Assembly: GCA_048213135.1 (NCBI GenBank)
Contig: PS015015.1
Location: forward strand, 220,925 to 251,006
DNA length: 30,082 nt
Direction of reading: 5' to 3'
Source: Reclinomonas americana ATCC 50394
Lineage: Eukaryota
The notes under the pieces were generated by a model. It made no database searches. It was not told where the DNA came from and saw nothing but the letters and a program-made list of their open reading frames with translations. This document shows positions 1 through 28,597 of this stretch, one piece after another. Position 1 is the stretch's first letter. The number at the start of each line of letters is the position of its first letter. A program made the position numbers and the translations under genes.

Positions 1-2309
1 GACTCCACGTCTGCCATGTCCTTCCACGCAGGTGCTGAATCGATTTTGCCCCCACCTCATAGTACAGCATCAAGGGCACTGGCCAGTTGCTGGAGGTTCG
101 TGTGTCGCGCAGACTACGACGATCAACTGGCGAGAACCGTGCCGCCGAGATCAGTGCCTCGCTGCCGTTCTTGGAGTACGACATGCACCAACAGCTCATG
201 AACAAGCTGCGCGTGGGTGGCATGAATGCCGTCTTCTCGCTCAAGTTCCAGGTGGCATTTTGTGAGCACACCATTAGTGCCATTGCGACTGGCACAGCAG
301 TTGCGTTGTCGTTGCTGCTGCTGATGCCCGAGATGAGAATGCGTCGCGTGACCACGCCCGCGAACAGGTATTCATGTGCGCTCTGCCACCACCGCAAGTG
401 TTGGCGATTGAGCGCATAAGTACGACTCTGAGTCGGGCGCCGAACATTGCACAGATCGTGGCGCATGTGCAGGCCATGAGCGAGCATAATGTTGCGTCTG
501 CCTGCGTGGTGTTGCCGCTGTAGTCACTGCTCTCACATTCCTTCTCTGCAGCACGATGTTTGGCAAGATATGCCGGTGCTGGAAGCCCCGTCGGCGGTTC
601 GTGAGAGAGTAGAGCGTGCCTTTCCTCGCCAGCTCATCCTGCTACCCCTCTCACCCCCATTCATTTCACCAGGATACGGACGAGAGCGGAACAAGTGAAT
701 CAGCAGGCGAAAGTACAGGATCGGAGGGTTCCAGGTCGGTTGCTTCAATCTCTTTCTGTAATCGCCACTTCTTGCTGGCTGAGCCGAGGTGTCGCCGTGC
801 AGTTCGTCTACGGAATCGATTGACTCGGACGCGCGCCCCGATGGCGATGGTCGACCTGCTTTTGTTATGCAGGTACGTCACAACGCCCTTTTGTAGCTGC
901 ACTTGGATATACTCGCCCTCATCATGCGAACAACATTCGCAGCTTGACGACTCGACAGATGCCGATAATCTTGCCTGCTTGTTGGACGTGCTTCCGCCGC
1001 CCATAAAGCAAATTCCGCACGAGGTGCACGGCAGCCTCTACTCACCGGCCACTCGGCAAGGGCTGGAGTCGGGTGGCGGTGGGCGCACACCACCCCTGCA
1101 AATGTACGATCCGGAATGTTTCCTGTCGACGACCGAGTCGGTGCCTGGACTGCGATGTGCGCCGCTGTTGGACGCACAGTACGTGACGATTGTGAGGAGG
1201 TATCCGTACACTGGCGCTCTGCCTGGTCCGAATCAGGATTTGAGTGCCTGTCTCACGGATGCCTACGGATACATTCGTTTCAAGGTGAGGAGCTGCAGTG
1301 TCCAGTGGTGGAGTTTGTGATGTAGTTTCTCACACGTCTGTGCAGGCTCTGAGTTTATTCCACACATCTGCGGCCAGTGGTCTGGATGTGGACGTGTCGT
1401 TTGTGTCGGAGCACTTTATTCAAGTGATTGTGTCTGGCATGCTGTCGGCCTACGATGCCGAGGTTTGTGTGTGACGATGCTCTCTCCCGCAACCGAGTCA
1501 ACAATAGACTGAATTCTTTTTCGTTGCTGTGCAGGAGGTGCAACAGTGTCTAGGTGGTCGCATGTTGCCGCCGGCGCAGCCGCAGCATGTGCCAGAGAGT
1601 CGGCCGACTGCGCGTAGCGCCGGCGGTACGCCTCTGCTCCAGTCGACTCCCTCGGTCGTGCCGGCCGCTGAAGCAGACGACGAGCTGTTGTTCCAGTTTG
1701 AGACGGCGACCACCATTGGGACGGCCGGGGCGCCGGGTGCCGCCGCCGCACGACGTGAGTGAGCTTCTCCGTTTTGCGAAGATGCCATGCATGCATCTCT
1801 GACGCCTGCTGCACTGCAGACCATTCTATGCTGGAAGTTGGCACGTACGACGACGACTCCAGCCGTCTCGGCTCCAAGGTGGCCGTGGAGCACGTGTACA
1901 TGAGCAATCTCGGCCAATGCACCGGTGAGTGAGCGGCTCGTGCGCCAAGCATGCTGCGCCTTGATCGCTAACTGCCACACGCACAGGCTCCACCATCATC
2001 CGCAACTTTGGTCGCATGGGCCTGCAGATTGTGCGCGAAACCTCGTCGCTGCGCGAAATGGGCGGCCACGGTGGCTTCCTGCACACGGTCATTAGCGACG
2101 CGTACTCGATGCTGCAGTCGCGCGCACGGAGCATTGGTGCCAACGCCGTCATGTCCATCCGCCTCGAATCCCTGCGCATTGTCGACAATATTGTGCGCAA
2201 TCAGGCCTACGCGCTGCTCTCTGTGGCCGGCGACTGCGTGGAGCTGTACTCAAGTAGTGGGAACGATGTGGTCGGCGATATGCTCTCGCGCACGCAGTAC
2301 GTCATCTGA
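1..2309 (+). CDS. C2CD5: C2 domain-containing protein 5-like (YbjQ-like repeats), 5'-truncated, about 9 introns
   Basis: Peptides EISASLPFLEYDMHQQLMNKLRVGGMNAVFSLKFQV...IATGTA|VFMCALP and C-terminal GRMGLQIVRETSSLREMGGHGGFLHTVISDAYSMLQSRARSIGANAV...RNQAYALLSVAGDCV match recalled C2CD5 motifs. Stop TGA at 2307-2309. Confidence 0.85.
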
Positions 2310-2692: not shown

Positions 2693-4159
2693 CCTCTATC
2701 TCACACGCATCTCTCTCATCACACGCAGCACACCCATTGACCCGGTGGTGCCACCTGCGTACCAGCAAGAGTGGGACTGCAAAATGCATCTGGCTGGCAT
2801 CACCTCCCATGATGATTCATCAGTACAAAGTTTCGTGTGTTCGTCTCCTCCCGTACTTGCCACCCATACGCAGCAACTCATCCACTCGCACAGCTGTCGA
2901 TCGTCTCTACCGCAAGGTGTACATGTCAGACGTGGAACTGCAACGCGGAAACTGTGGAGCAGGTATTGTTGGCACACATCCTTTGCTGCTTCTTTGCTGC
3001 GTGTGCTAACCAACGGGCGCGCGGCAGGCATGTTGACCAGCACGGGTGCCGCGCAGCAGTTCGCGCTCGGATCGACCTTGCGTGCCGTGTACGTGGATCA
3101 GTTGGGGTTCTTGCCGCCGACGTATGACCCGTCGGTGGTCTACATTCGCTCCACTGATAGTGCGTGCTTGTGTGTGAGCTCCTTGTGTCTGCATTCCATG
3201 ACCTCACTCTTGACGCTGGCTGGCTGGCTGGCTGGCTGGGCGCAGTTCAACGCACGCAAGAGTCCGCCATGAACCACATTGTGCGTTTGCTGATATTCGT
3301 TCAGTGCTCACTTTCTGTGATCGAGCTCACCACCACTCACTGCTCGCAGTACGGCCTCTACCCACCGTCCTCGCGGTCTGGCGTCGCGACCACGGAGATG
3401 CTCAACATCAACACATGTGATTTGGGCAATGACATTNNNNNNNNNNNNNNNNNNNNTTTTGCTCGTGGACTCACTTCGTGTGCGCGCGCGAAGACCACCC
3501 TCGCCCGTCGTCTCGGATTCGGACGCCTTCTGAGTGTGCTTCTCGGCAACATGCGTGGCGCGCAGAACGGACGCAACCAGTACAAGGCATGTTGTTGGGT
3601 CCATGGCCAAGGAAGAGTCGTCGCTTTCTTGCTCACCTTACCGTGCCCCCACAGTACCAACTCTACAGCGCACATGACACCACGGTGGCGCCCCTGCTGG
3701 CCTCGCTCTCCGTGCCGTGCAGCACTTGTGAGTCGTCGTGCGCGCCTGTGTCCGTGTGATGGCATACTATGCTCATTTACTGGAACACAGATCCTCCGTT
3801 TGCGGCAAACGTTCGGCTGGAGACCTTTACGAATGCAACGAGTTGCGTGACAAGCGAGGAGAAGAAACGATGCGATTGCATACTGACACGACGCTTGCGA
3901 CATGCAGACAACTGGTTTGTGCGTGTGCTGTACCAGGGCGCACCGCAGGTGGTGCCCGGATGCCCGAGCGAGTTCTGCCCGCTCGACACGTTTGCCTCTA
4001 TCGTACAGCCGGTACGCCAATGAGCTGCTTGGTTGTGCGTGCGGGCCGGTCTCACTGAACGCGACAATGCAGTTGATCCCGACCAACTACGCCGCCGAGT
4101 GCTCCATGCAAGGCCGCCACTACGCTCACGAGCATGATGCCGCCACTCATCGTGCGTAA
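2421..4159 (+). CDS. Secreted/lysosomal histidine acid phosphatase (ACP6/ACP2-like); middle hidden in gap 3437-3456
   Basis: Signal peptide MMRSTAVLLLVAM..., catalytic VQVVMRHGAR|TP, GMLTSTG, YIRSTD|IQRTQESA, YSAHDTT, VRVLYQG...GCPSEFCPL. Stop TAA at 4157-4159. Confidence 0.9.
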
Positions 4160-5082: not shown

Positions 5083-9017
<3,935 letters not shown>

Positions 9018-10326: not shown

Positions 10327-10664
10327 CGGGAGGAAAGGGGAGGGAGAGAGGTGAAGGGAAAACGAGAAGCGAGTGATCGAATGGTTGCATGCACGAGTGA
10401 GTTGACTCTCCCTCANNNNNNNNNNNNNNNNNNNNNNNNNNNNNNNNNNNNNNNNNNNNNNNNNNNNNNNNNNNNNNNNNNNNNNNNNNNNNNNNNNNNN
10501 NNNNNNNNNNNNNNNNNNNNNNNNNNNNNNNNNNNNNNNNNNNNNNNNNNNNNNNNNNNNNNNNNNNNNNNNNNNNNNNNNNNNNNNNNNNNNNNNNNNN
10601 NNNNNNNNNNNNNNNNNNNNNNNNNNNNNNNNNNNNNNNNNNNNNNNNNNNNNNNNNNNNNNNN

Positions 10665-11846
10665 GCACACCGTCAGCACCGACACCGCCAGTGGCCCGAG
10701 AATGGCCAGGGCCAGCCAAGCACCATTAAAGTGACTGTAGAATGCCATGAGGCCGGCGGTGCCGAGGAACGCCATGGCCACTCCGCTGGCAATCAGGAAC
10801 ACGGTCAACAACGTGTCGTCGGAGATACTGCGCGCGGAGAGGACGAGGAAAAACAGGCCGAGAAGCATCAGCACGTACGGCATGCTGTAGAAGAGCAGGC
10901 CACCGAAAATCGCGTGCACGAGGAACGCCGCCGGTGCCGTCCACAGCACGTGATAGGCGGAGGCGTAGAGGCCTCGTCGAACGTCGTTCTTGGGCACCAG
11001 CAGACGGAGCAGAGGGACGCGCACGACAATGGCATGCACGACACTGAAAAAGAGAAACACCATGAAGAACGTGTACCTGCACGTGCATTCACAGCAAGTC
11101 AACAACAATAGAGGGCGACGACCAACAGAGCACCGCACGCAACAGCGGATACACGGCCTCGCTGGCACACTCGGTTCTCCCATCGGGCGGCTGATGAAAG
11201 TACGTGTACCAATCATCGACACTCTGCGTGCCGCACGACGGAAACGCAAAGTGTCCGCCCGTCATCGACAACACCGCAAAGCACGCCGACGCCAGCGTCT
11301 CCACGGCCACCAGCAGCAACGTAATGACCACCAACCAGCCCGACTGCTCACCGTGCTGCTCCTCCACGGCCTTGACACGCACCAGCATGCACAGGCCGAG
11401 AAGCATCACGTACACGACAATCTCCGAGACCACAAAGAAGACGTCGTACTGCGAGAACGAGTCGGTGCATGGCACGCATACCCAGCCATCTGTGCGACTG
11501 CCACGCTTGCAGAACTGCACCGCCACAGGCTGTCAGTGGAGAGTGAATGAGAGAGTGAGAATGAGTGAGAATGACGCGACTGTGCATGCAGAGGCCTCGG
11601 GCGCGGCAAACGATTGCGCGTCCAGTCGACGTCCACAGTAGCGACCAGCGCAGGCGGCATTGTCGGCCTGGAAGAGCGCGCGATCGGCACCACTCACGTA
11701 CGACTCTTTAACAAGGCAGTCAGCACAGACAGAGAGAGAAGAGATGCACAGTCAGAGAGACAGAGCGCACCGTGTGGCAACTGTGCATACGCGACAGCAG
11801 CAAAGCAGCACAGCAGACACACAGTGAGCAGCAGTGGTCGCCGCAT
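10665..11846 (-). CDS. JKAMP: JNK1/MAPK8-associated membrane protein (JAMP); 3' end in gap
   Basis: Signal peptide, then CAGRYCGR, CKRGSRTDGWVCVPCTDSFSQYD, SCGTQSVDDWYTYFHQP...CASEAVYPL|YT and VHAIFGGLLFYSMPY. These parallel recalled JAMP motifs (CPGLYCG, CPRGQRT, CTHEAVYPLYT, GGLLYYAFPY). Confidence 0.85.
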
Positions 11847-11900: not shown

Positions 11901-13640
11901 ATGAAAGCAGAGAGCGCGCGCTCACCGACCAGCGCCAGTCGCGGTGCCAGCAGCAGCAGTGGAGCACCCACAGCAGCAACAGTGGGAGTGGGTCCCACAG
12001 AGTACCACCACCCTGCACCGTGGCACACACACGTGCATCGCGTGGAGGAGGCGACTGTGACCTCGCCGGCGATGAGTGGCGTGCGGCGTCGACTGGTGTT
12101 GCGTGTGGTCACTGCGGTGGTGTTGGTGGCGCTGATGGTGGCAGTGTGGGGAGTCATTGGGCGACTGAGCTCGTCGGATGTGGTCGGTGGAGGTGGCGCG
12201 CAGTGGGCCAATGGGAAGAAGAGAAGTGGTGCTGGTGCTGGTGCAGCAAAGGTTTGGTTTCACGCATGATGCGGTGGAAAAGGCGGCTCTGTCTCACGTG
12301 TGTACGATGGGGAGAAGAGTGGAGGAGCATCGGGCATTTCGGATGCCGAGCGCAAGGACATTGATGGGGGTGGTGAGGCGTCGTTGGGCGTGGACTCTGA
12401 TGTCACGTCGCCCATTGGATCAGAGGCGCTGGCGGCCATTGGAGCGCCACTGGTGCGCATGGACTCCCTCTCTCTGCCGGTGTTTGTCACACGTGCTCAC
12501 CACCGACCACGTGCGCAGGTGCTGGAGGGATCGCTGCCGATTACGGCGTCGGTGATTTGGTTGCACGGCATTGGCGATCACGGCGAGTCGTATCGCCCGT
12601 TGGCGGAGCAGCTGATTGCGCGCTTCCCGTTCTTGCGCGTGGTGTTGCCATCGGCGTGAGTTGTCGTCGTCTGTGTGGTGCTGTTGTCCATTTCTCTGTC
12701 GCTGATTCGGGCATGACAGACCACTGCGCAAGTGCGCCATCTATCCGTCTCCTCTGCGCGCATGGTACGAGGTCAACTCACTGGATCCGCATGCCCCTGG
12801 TGCGTATCTTTCTCCTTCGCCGTGCGTGTGTGCCTCCCCCTCCTGACCTTATGGTGCAGAGGAGGAGAGCAGTATTAAGTGGGCGGCCAAGGAGGTGCAT
12901 CGTCTCATTCGTGAAGAGGCGGTGGCGAGCAGCATCTCCACGCAGCGCGTCTTTGTCGGCGGTTTCAGCCAGGGCGGCGCTGTGGCACTGTATGCGGCGC
13001 TGACGAGCCCCGTGGAGGTGGGTGGTGTTGTGGTGCACGGCGGCTACATCCCGCTGCGCCAGCAATTCCCGGCCGCCACCGCCGACTCGGCATTTGTCTC
13101 CCAGTTGCATGTGCTGATGACGCACGGTGTGTGTGGGCGCGCACATGTTGTCTCTCTGTGTGAATTGCTTTTTGTGTGACTTTCGTACCCCTCGCAGGAG
13201 CACTGGATTCGCGTGTACCTCTGCAATGGGCCGAAGTTTCGCGTGACATTGTCCGCAGCACCGGCGCGCACGTCAAGTTTGTCAAGGTGTGCACCCACGG
13301 TTGTGCTGGTGGTCGTGGGTTGTCATTTATCCCCGTGCACCCCCAATAGTACTCGTCCGTGGGCCACAAGCTGCCGCCAGTGGCACTCGCCGACACTGCC
13401 AAGTGGCTGCAAAGTTGTGTTTTGTTTCACTCTCTCACACGCAACCACTTGCCACTCTCCTCTCACTCATCTTGGCGTGTGGCAGAGCGCTTGGCTGACG
13501 ACGACGACGACGACAAATCCGAATCACACAATGGACGGAGGAAAGAAGACGCTGCCGACGAAAACGACAGCGACGACGACGACGACGACAAGAAGGACGA
13601 CAAGGACGACCGTGACAGCGACAGAGGGCACGAGGACTAG
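11901..13640 (+). CDS. Acyl-protein thioesterase/lysophospholipase (LYPLA-like alpha/beta hydrolase) with N-terminal TM anchor and acidic tail
   Basis: VIWLHGIGD, VVLPSA|P, RAWY, GGFSQGG (Ser), THG|ALDSRVP (Asp), YSSVGH (His). Hydrophobic segment VLRVVTAVVLVALMVAVWGVI lies upstream. Stop TAG at 13638-13640. The N-terminal join near 12252-12317 is uncertain. Confidence 0.85.
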
Positions 13641-13701: not shown

Positions 13702-15119
13702 TCATGGGGGTGCAGGCTGCCGCTCCACCACTTGCAACTTGGCTGCCTTACGTCGCAGTCGACGAGTCTGCAGATCGTCGTCATCGTGATCCCCATCATC
13801 ATCGTCGTCATCATCGTCATCGTCGTCCTCTAGCTCATCTCCATCATCGTCGGTGGCGCGCGGTCGATACTTGTGCGGAAGCCAGTGCGTGCTGCAGAAC
13901 TGGTGTAAGACAACACAAAGCATGTCGCCCACATGGCGAGTGCCGCGACGCAACTCCTCGGCAAAGTTGGCAAACGCCTCAAAGTACGTCGACTCGGCCT
14001 CATCAGTCGACAGGCCAGTCAACGCGAATCCGTTCGCCTTGTCGGCCAGCGTCAGCACACGCCACACACTCTCCTTCTCCGTAATGTCCAGCGGCTGGTA
14101 CGAGACCAACCCAAAGTCCTGGATCAACTCGATCAGGCGGTCAGACAGCTTGGCAAAGCGCTCCGACGCCTGCTGTCGCAGCAAGCTCGGTCGCAACGCC
14201 TCCAGCTCCAGCACCTCGGTGTAGTACTCTAGGCCGAGCTCTACGACACGACACGCGGTGAGATTCCGTATTGCCTATCCCCCACAAACGCTGCACACAC
14301 ACGCACCGAGCTCGCCCATGCTCTCCACGAGATCGATCTTGGAGAGCACATTGACATGCGGCAGCTCCACGTGCAGCATGGTCACCAGCGAAACGAGAGT
14401 CGCCGAGATGAACTTGGAGGCATCGGAGCAGTAGTGCGAGTCCACCAGATGCATGGCCACGAGCTGCGCACAGCAGCAACACGGTCAAGGACCATCGACG
14501 ATCGAGATAAGAGATGGCGACCGACCTGAAAATGCATCTCGCGACACAGCCGCTGCACGATCGCTCGCACCGTCTGGTGGTGCGTGTACAGCTCCACTTG
14601 CCCGGGACAGTCAAAGAGCACGTACGCGTCTGCACAGACCAATGTGTGAGACTGGCATGAGCTCGAGGGGAGTGCGAGGAGACAAGTCCGCACCGGGAAA
14701 TCGCTGCAGCTGCTCCTGCAGCCAGTCAAAGTTGGCCTCCAGGTACTCGATGGCATACACCAGGCCTGCCACGGAGCACAGAGTGTGAGAGCTCACCACA
14801 TCGGACTCAGTCTCTCTCTCTCTCTCTCACACACACACACCGCCATTGGGTCCGAGATTGTAGGTGGCACACACGTCGGCCACAGTCACCAACTCGCGCA
14901 AGTCAATGTCGCACTCGTACCTGTGGTGTGTGGCACGTGAGATGCACGACGGAGAGAGAGGAGGTGATGTCGAATGCGCAACGGAAGTGAGTCGTTGGCC
15001 GGGTCCAAGTTGACCACGCACACGGGTCGCTTGAGGGCGCGCAGGAACTGTTGCATGCCTGCACAGTAGGTGGTCTTGCCGGAGCCTGGTGGCCCGATGA
15101 CCACCTGCCCGAACGGCAT
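13702..15119 (-). CDS. GPN2: GPN-loop GTPase 2
   Basis: [77 protein letters not shown]. Six GT-AG introns give an open frame. Confidence 0.93.
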
Positions 15120-15175
15120 TCGCTCCTCTTTCAAAGACAAAAGACAAGTCCTCCAATGAGTCGTAATCTATAGTT

Positions 15176-15867
15176 TCACTGCGTTGACTCCTCCTCTGCC
15201 TCACTCCCTGACGAGTCTCCACCATCGTCATCCTCGCCACCGTCAGCTTCTCCCTCATCCTCGCCTCCTCCATCTGCCCCTGCGCGGGCAGAACCGGGTG
15301 AGGAGTGGGCGAGACGGGCACGACGTTTGGCGGCCTTCTCGGCTCGGAAGCGCGCAGCCACGGTGGCCAGGTCCGGCGAGCTTACGCTCTGTGATGGTCC
15401 AGGACCCGACGACTGGGCACTGGTGGCGGTGGTGCTGGGGTCGGAGCCGGCCGACGGGGCAGCGCCAGGCTCCGATGCAGGGTTCTCGCTCATCACCCAG
15501 TGCGTGTCCTTGAAAACCTCCGAGACGAAGCGCTCGCTGAGCTCCTTCAGCTTGTGCTCGTACTGCGCACTGAACTGTGGCGCACACACAGAAACAGGCA
15601 AGGGTCAACAAGGTTGCCTCCTCCTTCTCCCCGCTCCACCATGATCCCACGCACCTTCTCAATGTAGAACGTGGCGCCATTCCACACCGAGGCCGACAGA
15701 ATCGCCACCAAGAGCACCAGATGCACGTAAAAGTGCTCAAACATGAACTTGACCGGCAGCGCGGTAATAAAGGTGAACGCCAGCTGCAGGCCTGCGCAAG
15801 AGACCGTCAGCCTTCACACCCCGTGCATCGCTTTCCTTTCAAGCTCTTGCCCCCCACCCCCCCCCCC

Positions 15868-15913
<46 letters not shown>

Positions 15914-17507
15914 GCGCGCGTCGCGCGACGACGACGACGTACGTACGGTACGGACGGACGGTACGGTCGGTTACGGGTTACGGGTACGGACGTACGTANN
16001 NNNNNNNNNNNNNNNNNNNNNNNNNNNNNNNNNNNNNNNNNNNNNNNNNNNNNNNNNNNNNNNNNNNNNGACGACGGACGGTAACGGTAACGGTAACGGT
16101 AACGGTAACGACGACGACGCGCGCGCGCGACGACGACGACGACGACCCCCCCCCTCTCTCTACTCTCTCTCCCCCCCCCCCCCCCCACCCCACCCACACA
16201 CACACACACACACGCACCCACAAACATGATGAACTCTGAGCCGGGCTTGGCCACGCGACACAGCTTGGAGACGACGGCGTTGTAGGTGAGCATGTAGCGC
16301 AGCGACGTCATGATGCTGGCATCCTTCTTCAGCATGTCGCGGTCGACGTACTCGGTCTTCAGCAGATACGAGGTCTGCCAGTAGGCGTAGAACAGGAACA
16401 TGCCCAGCATGTTCATCCCGTAGTTGTACTCGCAGTTGGCGTGGTTGTTGCACACGGCGTACTTTCCGTCCGACGGATACCAGCGCAAGCAAAAACAGAC
16501 TGCACACGCAACAAACAACAGCGTCACGCACGGTGGTCACGAGAGGCAAAACATCAAAGGAGCACGCACCGACAGGTGGAATGGAGTGAATAAAGACCGA
16601 GGTGACCTTGTCGACCGAGTGGAAGACGAGGGAGTTGCGCCACGTGGGAATGGCCCATAGCAGCGTGCCGTTCGAGATGGTGAACACGAGCTGGAAGAGC
16701 GCCGCACTTGTCGGATAGAAAACCAAGTAGACCACCAGCGCCATGTTCGCAAAGTAGCAAAAGTCGATCAGGAAGTAGTGATCCTTGTTGGAGTGGTAGC
16801 TGAAGAAGCGCGTGATGACCAACTGCAAGCAGCACGAGGGCATGAATGAATGATTATATTGCGGAACTCGCTCACGCACTCACTCACCAGCGGCATCCAG
16901 AACAAGTAATAGTACGGTGTGAGATGCGGAACGCGACCAGCCATGTACGCAAGCATGACTGTGTTCAACACGCCTATTTCCGGAGAGTGGGGTTCGTGAG
17001 ACAAGTGGAAAACAACTCTCATTCTCTCTCCGCAAGCTGCCCTCACCCAAGTAGAACGCGATCTTGTCCCTGAGCTTGACAACGACGGGATTCTGCAGGC
17101 CACGCAGCAACTTCTGCTCTCCACGCGCTCAGTCAATCGCGAGGCCAACACGAGTGCGAAGGAAAACACGCAACAAGTCTCCTCTTTTGCACCGCGTGCA
17201 CCATGGCGGTCTTGCGCGCGGAGAAGAGCGATCGCAGTCGCGCCGCCTTGTTCTTGATTCGAGATCCGAGACTATCCAACGACACATCGCTGTCTCACAC
17301 GCATTGCCACTCAGTCTCTCTCTCACACACACAGACGCGCACACTCCTCTCCACACACAAACCCTTTGAGCTTCTCAAACACACTGAACGCGCTGTTGTC
17401 GATCTGTGCGCGACGTGATGAGTACACACGCACACACACACGCGCGTGTACACACACACCTCGCCAATGTCATAGTCGGCATCGACCAGGTAGCCCGTGG
17501 CTGCCAT
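15176..17507 (-). CDS. GPC1: Glycerophosphocholine acyltransferase (Gpc1/GPCAT, DUF2838 family)
   Basis: VKLRDKIAFYL|GV, RFFSYHSNKDHYFLIDFCYFAN, NGTLLWAIPTWRNSLVFHSVDKVTSVFIH, YAYWQTSY, TSLRY, SVWNGATFYIE. Confidence 0.88.
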
Positions 17508-17602: not shown

Positions 17603-20067
17603 ATGCGAGTGGCACTGCTGCTGCTGCTCGTGCTGGTGGTGGCCATCACCACCACTGCTGCTGCCAAACCCGGCAACAAGCATGCAACTGCATCGTCTGC
17701 CTCGCTGGGTATGTGCGCTGCAGACAGACATGTCGAGCAAGCCATGACTCTCTCTCTTCCCTCACACACACGCATGCATGCACACACAGTGTTCACCTGG
17801 CAGCATGTTGACGACGCCAATCAACACGTTTCACCGTCACTCATCGGGCGTCGCGTGGGTCATGTCAGTGCGGCGGCCACATGCAATCGCAGTGTGTTTT
17901 GGTGGGGTGGTCGGACGTCGCCAGTGGCCTTTTCCGATTCGCTTGTGAGCAGCTCGTGGATGGAGTCGGGCGATATGGAGTCGATCAAGGAGCTGAGTGT
18001 GCGTGGCGACGTGCCCAGTGGTCGTATGGGTGCATCGATGGTCGCCGTGCGCGCGAACGAGGAATGCACGCAGCAGCGATTGCTGCTGTTTGGAGGGCGC
18101 GATAGTGTGTTCTCGGGCGCCCCGTTGGCGGAGGCGGTGGTCCACGAGTACTCGACTGGTGCGTCTGTGTGTGTGTCTGCGAGTGGGCTTTTGCCTCGCC
18201 TCATCCTGCTTCCTGCAAAAGAGTACGAAAGTTGGCAGACGCTGCCGAGCAATCGCCACTCGCCGTCGCCCCGCACCGGTCACTGCTCGGTGCTGGTCGA
18301 CAACTCGCTGATGTACATCATTGGTGGTTTCGATGGAACGCACCGACTCGCCGATGTGCACGTCTTCAACGCCGAGCGCAAGGAGTTTGTGCCGGTGCAG
18401 ATTGGTGGCAGCGGTTCGCTGTCACCGCGCGAGGGCCACCGATGCGTGGCGATCGGCACCAACATTTACGTGGTGGGCGGCTCAGATGGCGATGTGTTCT
18501 TTGATGATGTGCACGTGTTGGACACGAGTTGCGTCGTTTGCATGATGGCACCACCACGACCCGATCGATGGTTCGCTGACGTGGCGCGACACAGAGACGC
18601 GCAAGTGGGCCAAGATGTCCACACGTGGCCAGTTTACTGCGNNNNNNNNNNNNNNNNNNNNAGTCGTCTATCCGCTGACTTGGTGTTCTGACGCGCACAC
18701 TTTTCTCTACACAGACAAAGCTTCGCGACCGCCATGGAGCGCCTCCGTTCGGTCGAGAACCAGGTCACCGAGTTGTGTATGCGCTTGAGTGCCCTGGATG
18801 ATGATTTGCAGGTTGCGTGTGCAGTGTGTTGCCGACGGTGTGTGCATGTGTGCGTTTGGCTCACTGGCTTGCGTGCGTACAGCGCATCGTGTCGAGTTTG
18901 GAGGAGTCGGAGAGGACCGAGGTGACCCTGATCTCGCGCAGCAAGTCCCAGAAGTCGGAGCTGGAGTCGATTGACCGCGAGTCAGAGGAGTCGCTGGCCG
19001 AGCGCAAGTCACTAGAGACGGAGCGCGATGAGGTGTATTCGAGGTTGCGCGCGGCCGTGCGAGAGCACCGCCCAGTGGTGCAGCGACTCAAGCGACTTCG
19101 CAAGGTCGGCAACTGTCGTTTCTCCTTCGTTTCTCCCCCCTGCTACTCACACTGCCCGACAGAAAACCGAAGAGGTCAACGACAAACTGCGCCTGCTGGC
19201 CGACCTCGACCAGACGCTGAAGCATGCTCACGTACGTCTCTCATCAAACTGCGTGTCACTGCCACTTTGCCTGTGCGTAATGTCGCTTCCGATGCAGAAC
19301 GTCGAGGAGCAGCTGCAGAAGCAGCAAGTGGNNNNNNNNNNNNNNNNNNNNNNNNNNNNNNNNNNNNNNNNNNNNNNNNNNNNNNNNNNNNNNNNTATCC
19401 GCGTCCAGCGCGATTCGCTGCTGGTGGAGCGCGAGCGCCTGCTGGAGCAGCTGACCAAGTGGATTCAGTTTGCGAATGCCGACACGTGCACCGGCATTCT
19501 GTCGCACGCTGATTGGGTGAACGTGTTCAAGAGCGAGTCCGCGTCGCAGTGTCCGGGTGGACCGGCCAGTTCGAAAGTGGACGACGTGGCTCGGTGCATC
19601 CAAGATGGCGAGTTCATCTCCGTCATGAAGCAAGTGGTGGACTTGGAGAATCAGGTCCGGGCGTTGCGGCAAAAGCTGAAGGAGCTGGATGCCGAGTTGC
19701 ACGAGTACGTGCTGAAGACTACACCTGTGAAGACGGTGCGTCGCGAGGCTGTGAGAGAGATCGTGTGTACGCTGTGCTTAATTCTCGCGGATTCTTGCAG
19801 CACGCGGAGGACGCACGCCGTGATTACGTGTCCCTGTTGTCGCAGCGTGATCAGTGAGTTGCCTCGCGTTGTGCTTCTTCTGTTTGCAGCTGTGGTTCTC
19901 ACATATGTTTGGCGTCTCTCTCCAGTCTCAAGGAGCTGCAGGATGCAGTCCGCAACTTTGAGAAGCTGCGATGCGAATTCCTGCTGGCCGTGGAACACAC
20001 TCGTACCGTCACCGGCACGCCTGCCCTCGAACCGTGCTCTGGCCCTGCTGCATCGTCGTCGGCATAA
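17603..20067 (+). CDS. Signal-peptide Kelch-repeat protein followed by a long coiled-coil region (two N gaps inside; could be two genes)
   Basis: MRVALLLLLVLVVAITTTAAA, then Kelch blades (PSGRMGASM...LLLFGG, PSPRTGHCS...MYIIGGFDG, SPREGHRC...IYVVGGSDG). Downstream exons are rich in E/L/R heptads. Stop TAA at 20065-20067. Confidence 0.7.
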
Positions 20068-20147: not shown

Positions 20148-22827
20148 TCATATTCTGGGTGGCGAGGTGGCCTCACGGAGCGGCACTCGAGCCTCCTCCG
20201 GTGAGCTGAGCATGCGGGGTGTGGGTGGTGGCGACGACGATCGCGGTGGCGACTGCTGTGCTCGTCTCTGTCGCCGCTGTCGACGCGGCTTCTTGGTGGG
20301 CGGCCGTCGTCGACATCTGCAGCATGCGAATGGCAGCCACACGTCACCGTCGTGGAAGAAGCACGTGTACACGAACAAGCCGAGGGCGCACACGGGCAGG
20401 AGTATGGTGGCCAGCATGAGTGGCGATATTCCGCCACCACTGCCCCCGGTGGCGCCTGCATCACTGCCACTGCCACTGGAGGCCAGTACGGCACACCACT
20501 GCACGATTACGGGGTACGAGGACTGCGCTTGGTATAGGAGACAAGTCAGTTGTCGTTCAGTCGCGGTGGCCTCCAAGCTCACGCAACAGTCACCACGGAG
20601 GCGTAGCCGGGGTCGCACTCGCATGCCAACGTGGTGTTGGCTGCCGGGCGGGAGTGTGGCGCGGTGCAGTTTGCACGGATGCCGGTGGCGGCGGCTGCGG
20701 CTGAGTCGATGATCAAAGTGTCACTGTCGCTTCCGCTTCCGCTTGCTCCCCCCGTGTTGCCGCTGGTCGTGTTGGAGGTGACTGCGCGTTGCACACACGA
20801 GTTCAGCGCCGCCTGTCGCACTTGATCGCCGGTGCACGACACTGTTGGTTCGCACAGGCCGCTCAGCGGGTTGTAGTAGTCACGCGCTCCATTGTACTTG
20901 GCGACGCAGCCGACGGCAGTCGGTCGGCACGATGCCGTCGCGGAGTCGAATTGCTGGTCCATTGTGCACGCATCCTGGCAGTAGAGACGACCCTGAACAG
21001 TGACTACACGCCGAGGTGCGACGCAGGTGGTGCTGTTGGTGACCAGTGCCGACGCGGTCTCCTGGAACCAGCCCACAGTGGAGAAGTCGACGCGACCCGT
21101 GGCTGCGACCACACCGCGCTGTCTCACGGTGACTGCGCAGTATCCTGTGGCCTGCAGCACTTGCTGTGCTCGAGAAGAACGTGAGCAAGGAAAACTCTTG
21201 CGTCCACACACAATCGCAACAAGTGAACCTTCGCGGTGACTACAAACAAGAAGCGACGGGTGCTATTGGCTGCCACCGACTGCTCCACCGGTGGTGACAC
21301 GTCGAGCGGCTGCACGTACACAGAAGTTGGAATGGAATATGCACGCCAGAGCACGCATAGAGCACGCACCGTGCAAGTGGAGTTGCGCTGCAGGCAGCAG
21401 TCAGAGACGGTCGTGGCAAATGCCGCGGCGGTGGTGCCGATGTTTGTGACATCGACCGCCACGAATGCATCTGTAGCACCGGCCACGAACGGTAGCAGGG
21501 AGGCAGCCGCGATGCTTGGTCGCCCGTCGACCTGACGCACACTGATCGACGAGGTGCTGAGCCGCAGAATCACGTCCACGCTCCCGACGGCGCACTTTAC
21601 TGCCACTTGTCCATCCGAAGCCCTGTGTCGATATGTCGTGTGAGATCTTTCTGTTGTTGTAGAGAGCGAACCCATCTCTGGCAGAACGCACGTGGTGCTG
21701 TCGGTGCAGCCTGTGAGTGCCGCCCCACTGGCCAATGTTGCAGCTCGAAACGGCGAAAACTGATCGTAGAGTGAGGCATTGGGCAACTGGGTGGGATCCA
21801 CGCTGGGCGCACGACAAGAGAACGCTGCCGACCAGGCGGCATCGTTCACGCCGATCTGGTTCTTGGCCGTGCCGATGCGCGACTTGGGCACAAGGAACGA
21901 CGACGAAACGTCCATGTCACGCACGAGCGTGTAATCAATGGCCACCTGTCGGAGGTCTTGTACTCGCTGCATGATGGCGTTGGCGGAGGCCTGTGTCGCG
22001 AGTTAGGCATTGCGATGTGGACAAACTGAGAGAGAGAGAGAGGCCAGGGGAGGGTCACACAACTGTTAGCACATTGCGCACCGAAGCCTCGCGCGTCGAC
22101 TCGGTGAGTGTGGTGGAATACGATTGCGCGGTGCCACTCTGCGACGCAGTCACTGCGATGGAGTAACGCAGTGTCGGCGCCGACAACTCGAACGCCAAGT
22201 ACGTGGTGCTGTTCCGCGCGACATCGTACACGCTAATGTCGGTACCGTCGGAGTGGACACAGCACACCGACGCCGTCGGACACGTGAACGACGATAAGGC
22301 GACTCGCTGTCGGCGTCGAGTGTAGGCATTACGCAGCGTGGTGGGTGGAGAACTCAGTCCGTACACTGTTGTTTGGACAAGGTCAAGGATTTCGAAGAAA
22401 AGAGGATCGAGCTTCCTCACTCACCGACGCTCCAGTCTTGAAGTGCAACAGTGACAGCAAGCGGCTCTGTCAACGACCACATGGTGGCACCACCGGCGGC
22501 GTCCGGGATCAACTCGCCTGCGACACACACAATCAGTCGTGCGCACAGAAACGAGTCGTGCTCCGTCGGCGCTCACTTGGATCCACGCTGAAGGAGAGAG
22601 TCGAGTCAGAGGCCGCGTTCAACGTCGCCGCCACGATCAGCGTGGGAGAGCAACCCGTGCTGCGTGTTGAAGATCGATGAGCAGATGCGAACGCGAACAC
22701 AACAAACGCGCAGTCAGTCGCCGTACCTCCCGCTGGCACACGGCACGACTTGAAGCGATACGGCCTCGCCCAGTGTAGCCACACAGGCGAGAAGGATGAT
22801 CACCGCTGCCGCAACCCGCAGGCGCAT
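20148..22827 (-). CDS. Divergent HAP2/GCS1-like fusexin, type I membrane protein, about 714 aa, 8 introns
   Basis: Hand model with introns 22660-22726, 22518-22576, 22366-22424, 21991-22081, two in-frame introns (69 and 60 nt), 21164-21228 and 20523-20587 gives a 2145-nt open CDS. Segments follow HAP2 order: CxxxxxGCxxTLIVAATL; LTEPLAVTV...VYGL; YLAFELSAPTLRYSIAV; FLVPKSRIGTAKNQIGVNDAAWSAAFSCRAP; domain III-like FVAGATDAFVAVDVTNIGTTAAAFATTVSDC...CAVTVR...VDFST; then TM, CCRC and a basic tail. Confidence 0.72.
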
Positions 22828-24200: not shown

Positions 24201-24346
24201 GTCGCCTGCTTAACAGTCCCGCTCACCCTCTTCTCTCTGTGTGTGTGTGTGTGTGCGTCTTTTGCGCNNNNNNNNNNNNNNNNNNNNNNNNNNNNNNNNN
24301 NNNNNNNNNNNNNNNNNNNNNNNNNNNNNNNNNNNNNNNNNNNNNN

Positions 24347-27300
24347 NACCACCGTCCTCGTCGACCTCAATCTTTGGCAGCTTCGGGTAGGTTGGCACGA
24401 GATCGTTGAACGCCTGCGCAATGCCGGCAAGAGCAAGTGAGTGCTCCCATCTATAGCACACGCACACGCACACGCACACAGAGGACGTGGTGTTTACGGA
24501 CCTTGAATGCCTCGGCATTGTGCTGATACATGTAGTGCTTGTTCATGCGCGCCAGCTCCAGCAGGAACTCTTCGTCGTGCAGCGGAATGTCTTCCATCTG
24601 TCGAGACAGGTCAGCGACAATTCCAGTGTGTGCTGTGGTGCGAGTGAAGGGCACCCGCACGCAACTCGAGCCAAGCGCTTGGTGGTGAGAACTCGGCGAA
24701 TCGCCCGTACCACCTGGCAGGACAGAGAAAGAGTGTGAGCTCCCCTGGCTCATGAAAATGTATCGAGTCATATCTGCACGGACGCAACTCCGCCACTGCT
24801 GAACCCGTGCGTAATGTATGCAAACACTTGCGGATGCAACGCGTGCGGCATGGGCACGCCGCACTTGACAGCCGTCTCGCGCCACAGCTTCTGCCGCGTC
24901 TGATATTGCGGCAGCCCGAGATACAGATGTGTGCCGAAGCTGTCCACCAGCGGTTTCTCGTTCCGTGCACGATGACCAGGGTAGGAAGTCAGCACGTAAT
25001 CAACAAGCGCGCACAAGGGGATTGCGATGCAGAAACATATCTTCCACTTGCGAGGTGTTGCCAATGACCATCACTCGCGGAATGCGCTTCACCTCCGTGA
25101 GGTGGTGATCCTCTCCCGACAGGGACGACATGAACACCTTGTTGCGAGCATGTCAGCACATCCTTGCCTTTGGTAGGTGGAGACACACATACACACCTCC
25201 TTGCCAAGTGCGTCCCACAAGAACTTCTTGATGCGACTCGCTGGCAACGACGGCACATCCGACGGCACACCTTCTGCGCCCACCAGCGACTCCGTGGGCT
25301 CTGGGGCCGCAGACTTGCCCTTCTTTCCCTTCTTGCCTTTCTTCTTGCCCTGCGGGGAGCAGATCACGTGTCATGCATGGGCGAGGTGGCGGGTGAGGGA
25401 CAGGATGGCGTGGCGCGCAACTCCGGCATCCACAACGACCTGATGCACTTGATCAATGTACACCACAGCCGGTACGTCGAGATGTGCGGCCAGCTGCGCA
25501 TCTGTGAGTTTCTCTCTCTCTCTCACGGAAAAGCTCTTCTCCATCCACACGCACCTTGAAGACGGCGTCGGTCATGTACTTGGTGGCGGCCTCCGAGTCG
25601 GCCAGCTTGCCGTAAATGTTGGACGGACTGAAGTCGAAGAACAAGGCATTGGTGTCGTTGGCGGCCGCGTATGAGAGCATCGTCTTCCCGCTGCCGCTGG
25701 GACCGTACAACAGCACGCTCTTGGCTGCCGGGGCGTACAGCAAGTCGCAACCGAGCGGATACACCACCTTCTCCACAAACAGCTGTCGTACCTGAGCCAA
25801 ACTCGGCTCAGGTAGCGGCTTTTGCGGTGGCGGCGCTTCACCCTCGGCCAGACGCTGCGGCTTCAGAGCCTCCTCGACTGCCACCTTCTCGGCCAGACCG
25901 GCCAAGTTGTTGAAGTCGCAGATAAAGTCACTGACACTCACAGAGGGGATCTGCGCACAATGCATTCACACTGATCAACTTGTGCGGCGCGAGTACAGCA
26001 TTGAACGGCAGTGCCACCGACGCACTCGACGAAGGAGTCCGAGTGAGAACATTTCCGTGAGAAGCTTGCGATCCTCGTCGTCTTGTTCGCGCATGGTCTT
26101 CAGCACTGTGCGAGAATCAGAGTGAATACGTCGCAAGACATCAGTTATCTACGTCGAAAAAGCTCTCACCAACAGGAGCCTCCTCCTTGACCTTCTTGCC
26201 CTTGGCGCCCTTCTTGCCCTTCTTCCTGCACACGTGGCGAGAGCGCATGTCAACACCGATTTAATGATATGTGTGGAAGCAGCAGCTCATGTTACGCACC
26301 CTTTGGCACCCTTGCCTTTCTTTCTGCGCCACAGAAGAGTTCACACACACACACGCACATGAGTCATCACATGACATCAAACCTTCCGCACACTAAAGTA
26401 CACCAGTAACACACCCTTTCTTTCCGCTGGCGCCCGGATCGCCCACCAGTTGCGCCTTGAGGTTCTCCATCTCCATTTTCAGCAGAAGATCAAGATCGGC
26501 GTTGGCCTACACGCTCGCCCTCCGTCAGTTCTCACTTCATGCCGGTGACAAGTTAGGTGTGCACCCACTCACCTCGGCCTGCACTTCCTCCTTGGCCCTC
26601 TGTCGCACAATGTCCAGCCGGTACTTGTGTTCGTGCTCCGCCATGTCCGACTCGGCAGCCTGCCACTTGCTAATGTACTGCTGCAGGCTGTCGCTGATGA
26701 CTCCAGTGACAGCTGGGTTCAACACTTTCTCCTCCGGTGGCCCCTGCACTGCGAGTCAGACGCGCACCGCTGGCAACTGGCTATCACGAAAACGCACCTC
26801 ATCGTCGCCGCCCTTGTCCTTCTTGCCCTTGCCTTTCTTGCCCTTCTTGCCCTTTTTGCCTTTCTCGCCCTTGCCTTTCTTGCCCTTTTTCCCCTTGCCG
26901 CCCTTCTTGCCCTTCTTGCCTCCCTCTTCCTCGTCGTCTGCGCGGCGACGAGATGATGGCACGTGTTGGCGAGTGATGGTGATACAGCACGACAAGAGCA
27001 ACAGATAGTCGACATACCTGGATCGCCCTTCTGGTACTTTTCCGGATGCTCCAGCCGATCCAGCACGTACATGTATGTGCTGTTGGGTACGTCGCTCGGC
27101 GCGACAGGAGCGCCTTCGGCGGGAGGTGGCGGCCCTTCAAACTCGAGAAACGTACACACACGCCAGTCAAGGACAACCACAAGCGAACATGAGATTGACA
27201 AGGAGAGGAGGAGAAAAGCACACAAAAGGATATTCTCCAGTCGCACGCCAGTTGCTGATGATCTTTTCGACGAATTCCCGCGACCTCTCCTCCGTGTACT

Positions 27301-28400
27301 CCGACTTCATCTGCTCACGTACTCTGCAGCACGTACGTGAACAGTCAGTGTGAAATCGTACGTACTCGCACAACATCAAGTCGGGTGCACACAACTCTCG
27401 TTTGATCTGCGTGATGGTCATCTGCAGTTCCTTCTCGTACTGTTGCTGGAGATTCTTCTTGCGTGCGCTCACGTCATTGACATGCGTACGCAGGGCTGTC
27501 AGCTTGTCGCGAGGTGGAACAAGACCCAAGAACACCAGGTCGTCCTGCTGGAACTGGCGAGCGGCCTTGCGAGCTCGGTGCATGCGCCATCTGCCGCACA
27601 GCGAGTACGGTGAGAACGAGCTGGGAGCGCCTCGCTCCTGCCTACCGCATACATGACGCACACTGACTGAATCTTGGTGGCCGCTGCATCAATGTCGACA
27701 TCGAAACGACCGGCAGTGAACGAGTGATGACTCTGCCCGGCATCCTCCTCGGTGATGCGTCGAATGATGCGCGCACGCTGACGACCCTGGCGTCCACGCT
27801 CATTCCGTTGCAAAATGAGTACCGCCTCCTGCACAGAAATCGCGCGCTCGGTGTACACGTCGCGCAGCTGGAACCCGTCCGTCGGCATCGCCTGCGTCAG
27901 CGGACCCGAATACTGTGCGGCCACGGCATCGAGCCACGCGCGCTTTTCAGAGTACACATTGCGCCCCTCACGGAAGTACCGCGGAACGGGCAGGTGCAGT
28001 GCAATAGGATCGACTTGCAAGTCCACCAGATGATCGTCGAAATTGATGTAGGCGCCCTTGTGCTCCACCAGACTCTGCATCCCGAGCAAACCCTCATCAG
28101 TCACACCGCTGCGTTCCCCCCAACCTTTCAGTGACACACGCACGTCTTTGAGTTCCACTGTGCGATACATCACCGCCTCGAGCAGGCGCCGCACAAAGGC
28201 GCGCTTCTGTGGTTGCATGATCTGTGCGAGGCCGAGATATAAGCATTGTGGCAGTTCTCTCTCCCTCTCTCCCTTACACACACCTCATCATGGGCGCGCT
28301 CCAGTCGTCGCAAGAGGCCAATGTAGACCAAGTACTGACGCTCGCGCAGTGGCAGCTGCACCTTGGGATCGGGATTCTGCCGCACCGCACCCATGATCAG

Positions 28401-28461
<61 letters not shown>

Positions 28462-28597
28462 CTCTCTCTCTCTCTCTCTCTNNNNNNNNNNNNNNNNNNN
28501 NGGTACGGGACGGTACGGTCGACCTACCGTACGTACGGACGGGTACGGTTACGTTAGGTCCGTACCGCCGACCCGAACCCAACCGACGTACTACGTC

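Follow-up and report, generated by a model that had tools for sequence, protein, structure and literature searches.

Gamete fusion has one marker that is conserved widely, HAP2 (GCS1). Class II fusogens enter the partner membrane with the tip of domain II, trimerise, and merge the two membranes by folding back domain III and the stem. In PMC6263441 the presence of HAP2 is taken as evidence of sex in protists, and HAP2 is reported in the genomes of Acanthamoeba and Dictyostelium. PMC5892394 records that surveys fail to detect HAP2 in some amoebae and that its own homology methods were possibly too insensitive. HAP2 is already well known and widespread, and what is new here is a very divergent member. 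It is encoded in a stretch of 30,082 nucleotides (nt) from Reclinomonas americana ATCC 50394 (GenBank contig PS015015.1, positions 220,925 to 251,006; the whole stretch is called the window, and all coordinates below refer to it). The gene product very probably belongs to the HAP2 superfamily, and on balance we favor its assignment as a strongly divergent HAP2/GCS1 (fusexin, class II) fusion protein with a fusion role in mating. The HAP2 link is supported by three independent lines of evidence: Pfam, family profiles searched against the PDB, and the predicted fold of a relative.

The gene lies on the minus strand, with its start ATG at 22827-22825 and its stop TGA at 20150-20148, the exact ends of the interval marked in an earlier, model-made reading of the window (the first-pass annotation). 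It has no single continuous frame, and an open reading frame listing made with translation table 11 (bacterial) splits it into pieces in three frames. The seven introns of the spliced model measure 67, 59, 59, 91, 60, 65, and 65 nt, and GT...AG boundaries were found in all seven. The first-pass annotation had described an intact model of 714 amino acids (aa); the intact gene from ATG to stop was upheld and the length was revised to 737 aa over eight spliced exons. This discrepancy is attributed to differing splice-site choices, in particular at the exon 7 donor, where there are two in-frame choices. Intron 5 (21369-21310) is stop-free and in frame over its 60 nt, and its retention would add 20 residues to domain III; it was taken as a true intron because the relatives lack such an insertion.

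Relatives were sought by comparing exon 5 with 1.84 billion representative proteins at a cut-off of E<=1e-3. Sixteen proteins matched, none with an E-value below 1e-10. The best match was P0001 (E 8.4e-8, 34% identity), a 'hypothetical protein' of Balamuthia mandrillaris (Amoebozoa; KAL6066032.1), followed by P0002, P0003, P0004, P0005, and P0008. The spliced model aligned with P0004 (691 aa) at 150 bits from the signal to the transmembrane (TM) helix (residues 6-661 on 9-662), with P0001 at 145 bits, and with P0005 at 121 bits (3-503 on 7-499). In a MAFFT alignment of the window protein with P0004, P0001, P0005, P0008, and P0010, its identity to these relatives was 23-28% (26% to P0004), and it kept the cysteine in all 21 columns where cysteine is conserved in at least four of the six sequences. 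Because the collinearity runs from end to end, it validates all eight exons, and it also shows a gene kept under constraint rather than a relic. The gene is real and intact, and its match to the relatives is beyond chance.

The five relatives in this alignment share the cysteine pattern, the stem modules, and the Trp-Cys ahead of the TM helix with the window protein. They are distant, with at most 34% identity even over exon 5. In P0001 the N-terminus and a part of domain III are missing, probably as an effect of its gene model. Searches of the HAP2/fusexin literature (Acanthamoeba/Amoebozoa, Mastigamoeba, Balamuthia, and paralogs), with supplements outside their reach, found no paper describing this family. 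A second group of relatives (P0013, P0016/P0018-P0020, P0003, and P0002) has domains I-III in common with the window protein and carries Pro-rich and other regions after domain III in place of the Cys-rich stem. The source of P0016 and its cluster is a transcriptome of the green alga Stichococcus. A Musa (banana) protein, P0009, one of the sixteen exon 5 matches, was rejected as a relative together with its cluster; their matches were of low complexity, fell in short repeated stretches on the Ser/Thr-rich insertion and showed no collinearity, and they were excluded from the alignments A1-A3 used below. Other searches added no relatives: a word-index protein search gave nothing at E<=0.01 with exon 5 and only its own first row with alignment A1, and 342 pattern matches of exon 5 among metagenome contigs yielded no confirmed case.

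The first line of evidence is the Pfam model PF10699 (HAP2-GCS1), which describes the ectodomain in 515 positions and has a gathering score of 27.4 bits. P0005 passed this threshold with 43.8 bits (E 1.8e-11) over profile positions 332-501, and P0004 scored 20.2 bits, below the cut-off. At E<=0.1 the model found nothing in the other 14 of the 16 exon 5 matches, and the second group of relatives gave no Pfam HAP2-GCS1 match. The window was scanned against Pfam as contiguous translations, that is, as single exons and as exon 5 read through the in-frame intron 5 into exon 6. The read-through matched PF10699 at a sub-threshold 12.4 bits (E 0.059), and this was the only family matched at E<=10. The match lies at profile positions 351-409, is collinear with the matches of the relatives, and covers the segment at the start of domain III.

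The second line of evidence comes from family profiles searched against 177,635 distinct PDB sequences. The solved HAP2 proteins are those of Chlamydomonas (5mf1/6dbs/6e18), Arabidopsis (5ow3), Cyanidioschyzon (7s0k), and T. cruzi (5ow4), and domain 3 of the P. berghei protein (7lr3/7lr4). A profile of alignment A1 (nine relatives and four window exons) gave three matches at E<=10, all of them Chlamydomonas HAP2 (E about 0.02), and a profile of A2 (17 relatives and five window exons) gave one, T. cruzi HAP2 (5ow4_A, E 0.0029) over 213 profile positions. Single sequences did not reach that far: a phmmer search of the PDB with exon 5 found nothing relevant, P0018 had no match at E<=10, neither to Chlamydomonas nor to Arabidopsis HAP2, and P0005 had three chance-level matches, none of them HAP2. 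The HAP2 link therefore needs profiles or structure.

The profile alignments also placed individual segments of the window protein. The exon 4 region was placed on the Chlamydomonas HAP2 chains. In exon 5, columns N44, G47, and C59 are invariant in the family and lie within 21897-21805, the segment that the A2 profile aligns to the domain II signature of HAP2 and whose closing cysteine is invariant in the family; a conserved motif at 21768-21730 sits on the next conserved HAP2 motif of 5ow4_A. The start of domain III, a segment ending in cysteine, was aligned to both Chlamydomonas and T. cruzi HAP2 by the profiles that include window exons. The first-pass annotation had claimed two HAP2 motif segments in the correct order, and both are present and placed on solved HAP2 chains. 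Its proposed profile check also came out in favor of HAP2, since the family profiles matched only HAP2 chains in the PDB and a relative, P0005, passed PF10699.

The third line of evidence is a structure model of P0004, which was folded with AlphaFold on the 22-row alignment A2. The mean predicted local distance difference test score (pLDDT) was 67.4 and the predicted template modelling score was 0.42; in blocks of ten residues the pLDDT over residues 41-520 was mostly 65-92, with dips to 52-61 at 191-220, 281-300, and 431-440. The model of this relative is a three-domain class II structure nearest to HAP2. The first eight Foldseek matches in the PDB were all HAP2 (6e18, 7s0k, 5ow3, 6dbs, and 5mf1) with E-values of 1.2e-17 to 8.2e-16 over about 480-550 columns, and hantavirus Gc (2e-13), Fsx1 (4e-12), and EFF-1 (4e-11) all ranked behind them. 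The first-pass annotation had proposed structure prediction as a check for a class II fold, and for the relative P0004 the prediction gave such a fold, with HAP2 ahead of Fsx1 and EFF-1. In VIA-align the Z-scores of five HAP2 entries were 16.3, 14.9, 14.4, 14.1, and 13.3, compared with 10.6 for Fsx1 and about 10.5 for alphavirus E1. Domains I and II of the model superposed on 6dbs_B with a Z-score of 14.9 and a root-mean-square deviation (rmsd) of 3.5 over 266 residues, and residues 326-434 on domain 3 of P. berghei HAP2 with a Z-score of 11.5 and an rmsd of 2.6 over 96 of 99 residues. The window protein would share the class II fold modelled for P0004.

The same structural matches bear on whether the gene, instead of being a HAP2 passed on by vertical inheritance, encodes a class II envelope glycoprotein that was acquired from a virus or a mobile element. 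The P0004 model does match bunyavirus Gc, alphavirus E1, and a nematode endogenous retrovirus envelope with E-values of 1e-10 to 6e-14, the best predicted viral protein (Foldseek, BFVD) having an E-value of 6e-14, but HAP2 structures beat every viral protein in both structure libraries. The seven short introns are of host type, the 1-kb blocks of the gene have 59-62% G+C, inside the window range of 44-62%, and the surrounding genes are ordinary cellular ones with no viral or mobile-element gene seen adjoining. Viral capture is thus extremely improbable.

Several results weigh against the assignment to HAP2. Searched singly against Pfam, five window exons gave no HAP2 match, the sole match being a chance-level one of exon 4 to Reo_sigma1, and the window sequence stays below the Pfam threshold throughout (12.4 vs. 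27.4 bits). The E-values of the profile matches to the PDB are weak (0.02 and 0.003); they still count because HAP2 was the sole thing matched. The first signature cysteine of 5ow4_A has no counterpart in the window protein and most relatives. Whole-chain TM-scores (template modelling scores) between P0004 and HAP2 are low (0.31-0.35 by query and 0.42-0.51 by target), and only single domains superpose well. The domains of the model are arranged differently from those in the post-fusion crystals, and stem and tail make up a third of the chain. Window letters themselves gave one model, that of exon 5 on alignment A3, and it is poor (mean pLDDT 53.8, no Foldseek match below an E-value of 6); this was expected because class II domains are built of discontinuous segments. 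The exon 5 model is uninformative and not negative. AlphaFold may have learnt HAP2 structures. The fold evidence comes from P0004, a relative with 26% identity, and would carry over to the window protein through the 150-bit collinear alignment. Even so, the HAP2-like reading of the first-pass annotation is supported, and neither of the outcomes it had named beforehand as refuting it, no class II fold and no profile match to HAP2, occurred.

Part of this contrary evidence would also suit a surface glycoprotein that is specific to the lineage, contains Ig-like and Cys-rich modules, is unrelated to HAP2, and matches its motifs by chance. Besides the sub-threshold Pfam scores of the window pieces, a protein-language search gave only weak Ig-like leads with exon 5 (scores of at most 0.79; with P0004 there was no usable match), and many glycosidase Ig-like domains match domain III of the P0004 model with Z-scores of 10-12. 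Chance is hard to reconcile with two family profiles that match HAP2 alone in the PDB set, with domains I and II of the P0004 model, beyond the Ig-like domain, that fit HAP2 (Z 14.9), or with a Foldseek E-value of 1e-17 to HAP2 over about 480-550 columns. An unrelated glycoprotein is highly unlikely, and we regard this explanation as close to refuted.

The makeup of the relatives leaves more room for a HAP2-like paralogue, an old side branch beside canonical HAP2 that would have a role in adhesion or recognition, in non-gametic fusion, or as an accessory in mating. None of the 16 exon 5 relatives looks like a canonical HAP2, and the only one to pass PF10699 does so with a partial match (332-501 of 515). 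The relatives are labelled as coming from distant lineages (Balamuthia and the Stichococcus transcriptome) yet no canonical HAP2 in the library of 1.84 billion proteins came as near to the window protein as they did, and a PDB search with the alga-labelled P0018 found neither the Chlamydomonas nor the Arabidopsis HAP2 at E<=10, which would be odd for the alga's own HAP2 orthologue. The alga label, however, stems from the transcriptome of a culture and may reflect a contaminant; a coexisting canonical HAP2 has been demonstrated in none of these organisms; and, according to PMC5892394, HAP2 orthologues can be divergent enough to escape BLAST and HMMER. The architecture of the window protein (signal, three domains, stem, TM helix, and Cys/basic tail) is moreover that of a working fusogen. 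A paralogue is an explanation that we consider rather unlikely. A related and equally tentative idea is that these proteins form an ancient HAP2-like sister clade, distinct from canonical HAP2, mostly invisible to Pfam, and spread over distant groups of eukaryotes, with members in an amoebozoan, in a transcriptome labelled as that of a green alga, and in this protist.

The topology of the window protein fits the favored reading as a divergent HAP2/GCS1 fusion protein. A hydropathy scan of the spliced model found two hydrophobic segments only, aa 1-23 (signal) and aa 645-669 (TM helix), and by hydropathy the protein has a type I membrane topology with a large ectodomain, a single TM helix toward the C-terminus, and a basic tail of 67 aa. 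The tail has cysteines at 680, 681, and 683 and, immediately after them, an Arg- and Lys-rich run, and a stretch of 69 aa from aa 669 that includes the tail contains 17 Lys and Arg residues. The signal peptide, TM helix, Cys cluster, and polybasic tail claimed in the first-pass annotation were all recovered from hydropathy and residue positions. The juxtamembrane cysteines and the basic run could plausibly serve as signals for lipidation and targeting. The protein contains 31 cysteines and eight N-x-S/T sites. Eleven conserved Cys columns of exon 7 are shared with P0001, P0004, P0008, and P0010, and the Trp-Cys ahead of the TM helix is common to P0001, P0004, P0008, and the window protein. An insertion of 21 aa, partly Ser/Thr-rich and with an extra cysteine at aa 288, lies at aa 283-303 (~21705-21643) and is present in none of the five closest relatives.

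A mechanism can be proposed from this layout by comparison with known class II fusogens. The product would be a type I surface glycoprotein with the order signal, domains I and II, Ig-like domain III, an unusually long Cys-rich stem, TM helix, and tail. Its place would be the surface of a cell competent for fusion, most likely a gamete, where the tip of domain II would insert into the partner membrane. After insertion the protein would trimerise, and the folding back of domain III and the stem would merge the two membranes. The window protein would thus carry out membrane fusion and act in sex.

The gene and the small family around it represent, in all likelihood, a form of HAP2 that routine tools label 'hypothetical', and one member of the family comes from Balamuthia, an amoeba that is a pathogen. 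The first-pass annotation had suggested that standard annotation may miss the gene, and this agrees with the 'hypothetical protein' label of the named relative and with the single exons, which have no Pfam HAP2 match. A profile of the new family would allow HAP2 surveys to be repeated. The family may be an unrecognised fusexin branch; if a canonical HAP2 coexists with it, an old branch of this kind would be revealed. If the sister clade is real, its members could be the 'missing' fusogen where HAP2 has gone undetected, or a second fusexin with a role in non-gametic fusion or recognition.

Table 1. Positions of the fusogen-like gene, its exons and protein regions, and of neighboring features in the window
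Feature	Position	Strand	Residues	Basis or remark
Whole gene, ATG to stop	20148..22827	-	~737 aa	8 exons, 7 GT-AG introns; collinear with relatives over all exons
Exon 1	22727..22827	-		First ~23 codons (22827-22759) are a hydrophobic signal sequence, by hydropathy peak at aa 1-10
Exon 2	22577..22659	-		Aligns with the N-terminus of P0004, P0005, and P0008
Exon 3	22425..22517	-		Spliced model and MAFFT alignment with relatives
Exon 4	22082..22365	-		Part of domains I and II; conserved Cys pair aa 127, 128
Exon 5	21370..21990	-	207 aa	Remainder of domains I and II, start of domain III; query that found the relatives
Exon 6	21229..21309	-	27 aa	Middle strands of domain III
Exon 7	20588..21163	-		End of domain III, then Cys-rich stem aa 459-613 (stem ends at aa 625)
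Exon 8	20151..20522	-		End of stem, TM helix (20429-20352), cytoplasmic tail (20351-20151)
Domains I and II	22770-21538	-	aa 20-338	Mapped from P0004 via alignment
Domain III (Ig-like)	21053..21522	-	aa 344-458	Mapped from P0004 residues 326-434; split by introns 5 and 6
Cys-rich stem	21052-20487	-	aa 459-625	Mapped from P0004 via alignment
TM helix	20429-20352	-	aa 645-670	Hydropathy
Tail	20351-20151	-	aa 671-737	Cys cluster and polybasic run at 20327-20262
First segment of first-pass annotation	21805..21897	-		Counterpart of HAP2 domain II signature; A2 profile alignment to 5ow4_A, E 0.0029
Second segment of first-pass annotation	21468-21397	-		First strands of domain III; closing strands at 21139-21077
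C2CD5-type YbjQ-like domain	63-416	+		Pfam; gene split by short introns
JAMP	11092-11532	-		Pfam; gene split by short introns
Phospholipase/carboxylesterase	12847-13176	+		Pfam; gene split by short introns
GPN-type ATP-binding protein	14385-15381	-		Pfam; gene split by short introns
DUF2838 (glycerophosphocholine acyltransferase)	16163-16879	-		Pfam; gene split by short introns
AAA ATPase exon	25456-25965	-		Pfam AAA, E 3.9e-6

The neighbors identified with Pfam include C2CD5-like, lipase, histidine phosphatase, JAMP, carboxylesterase, GPN-type GTPase, DUF2838, and AAA ATPase genes. The DUF2838 exon had its top match to P0029 (67%), followed by Acrasis kona (64%) and a Stygamoeba transcriptome (59%). 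Upstream of the AAA exon on the same strand is an open frame (27502-28284, minus strand) with an IQ-motif-like reading and no Pfam match; we take this frame and the AAA exon together to recall the flagellar IQ-plus-AAA protein. Most 1-kb blocks of the window have 57-62% G+C. Eight runs of N (3437-3456, 7120-7238, 10416-10664, 15999-16069, 18642-18661, 19332-19395, 24268-24347, and 28482-28501) account for 643 bases and lie mostly in or beside long two-base repeats (CA, CT, and GA) that fill much of the intergenic space. The pattern thus suggests a draft assembly broken at microsatellites.

Among known fusogens, Fsx1, EFF-1/AFF-1, and the viral class II proteins have in common with this family the three-domain class II fold, as modelled for P0004; they are a poorer structural match than HAP2 (Z 10.6 for Fsx1 vs. 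13-16) and gave no match to family profiles A1 and A2 in the PDB. HAP2/GCS1 differs from the family in that P0004 is only 12-19% identical to the solved HAP2 proteins in structural alignments, the window pieces fall below the Pfam threshold, the first signature cysteine is missing, and the window protein has a long stem with about 11 conserved cysteines. The likeness to HAP2/GCS1 extends from the type I topology to three beta-rich domains in the same order, an order seen on P0004, and to two segments that align by profile, that of the domain II signature and the one that opens domain III. The two also share a cytoplasmic tail with cysteines and basic residues; such a tail reportedly matters for HAP2 targeting, as the title of a 2015 study by Liu and colleagues is said to state.

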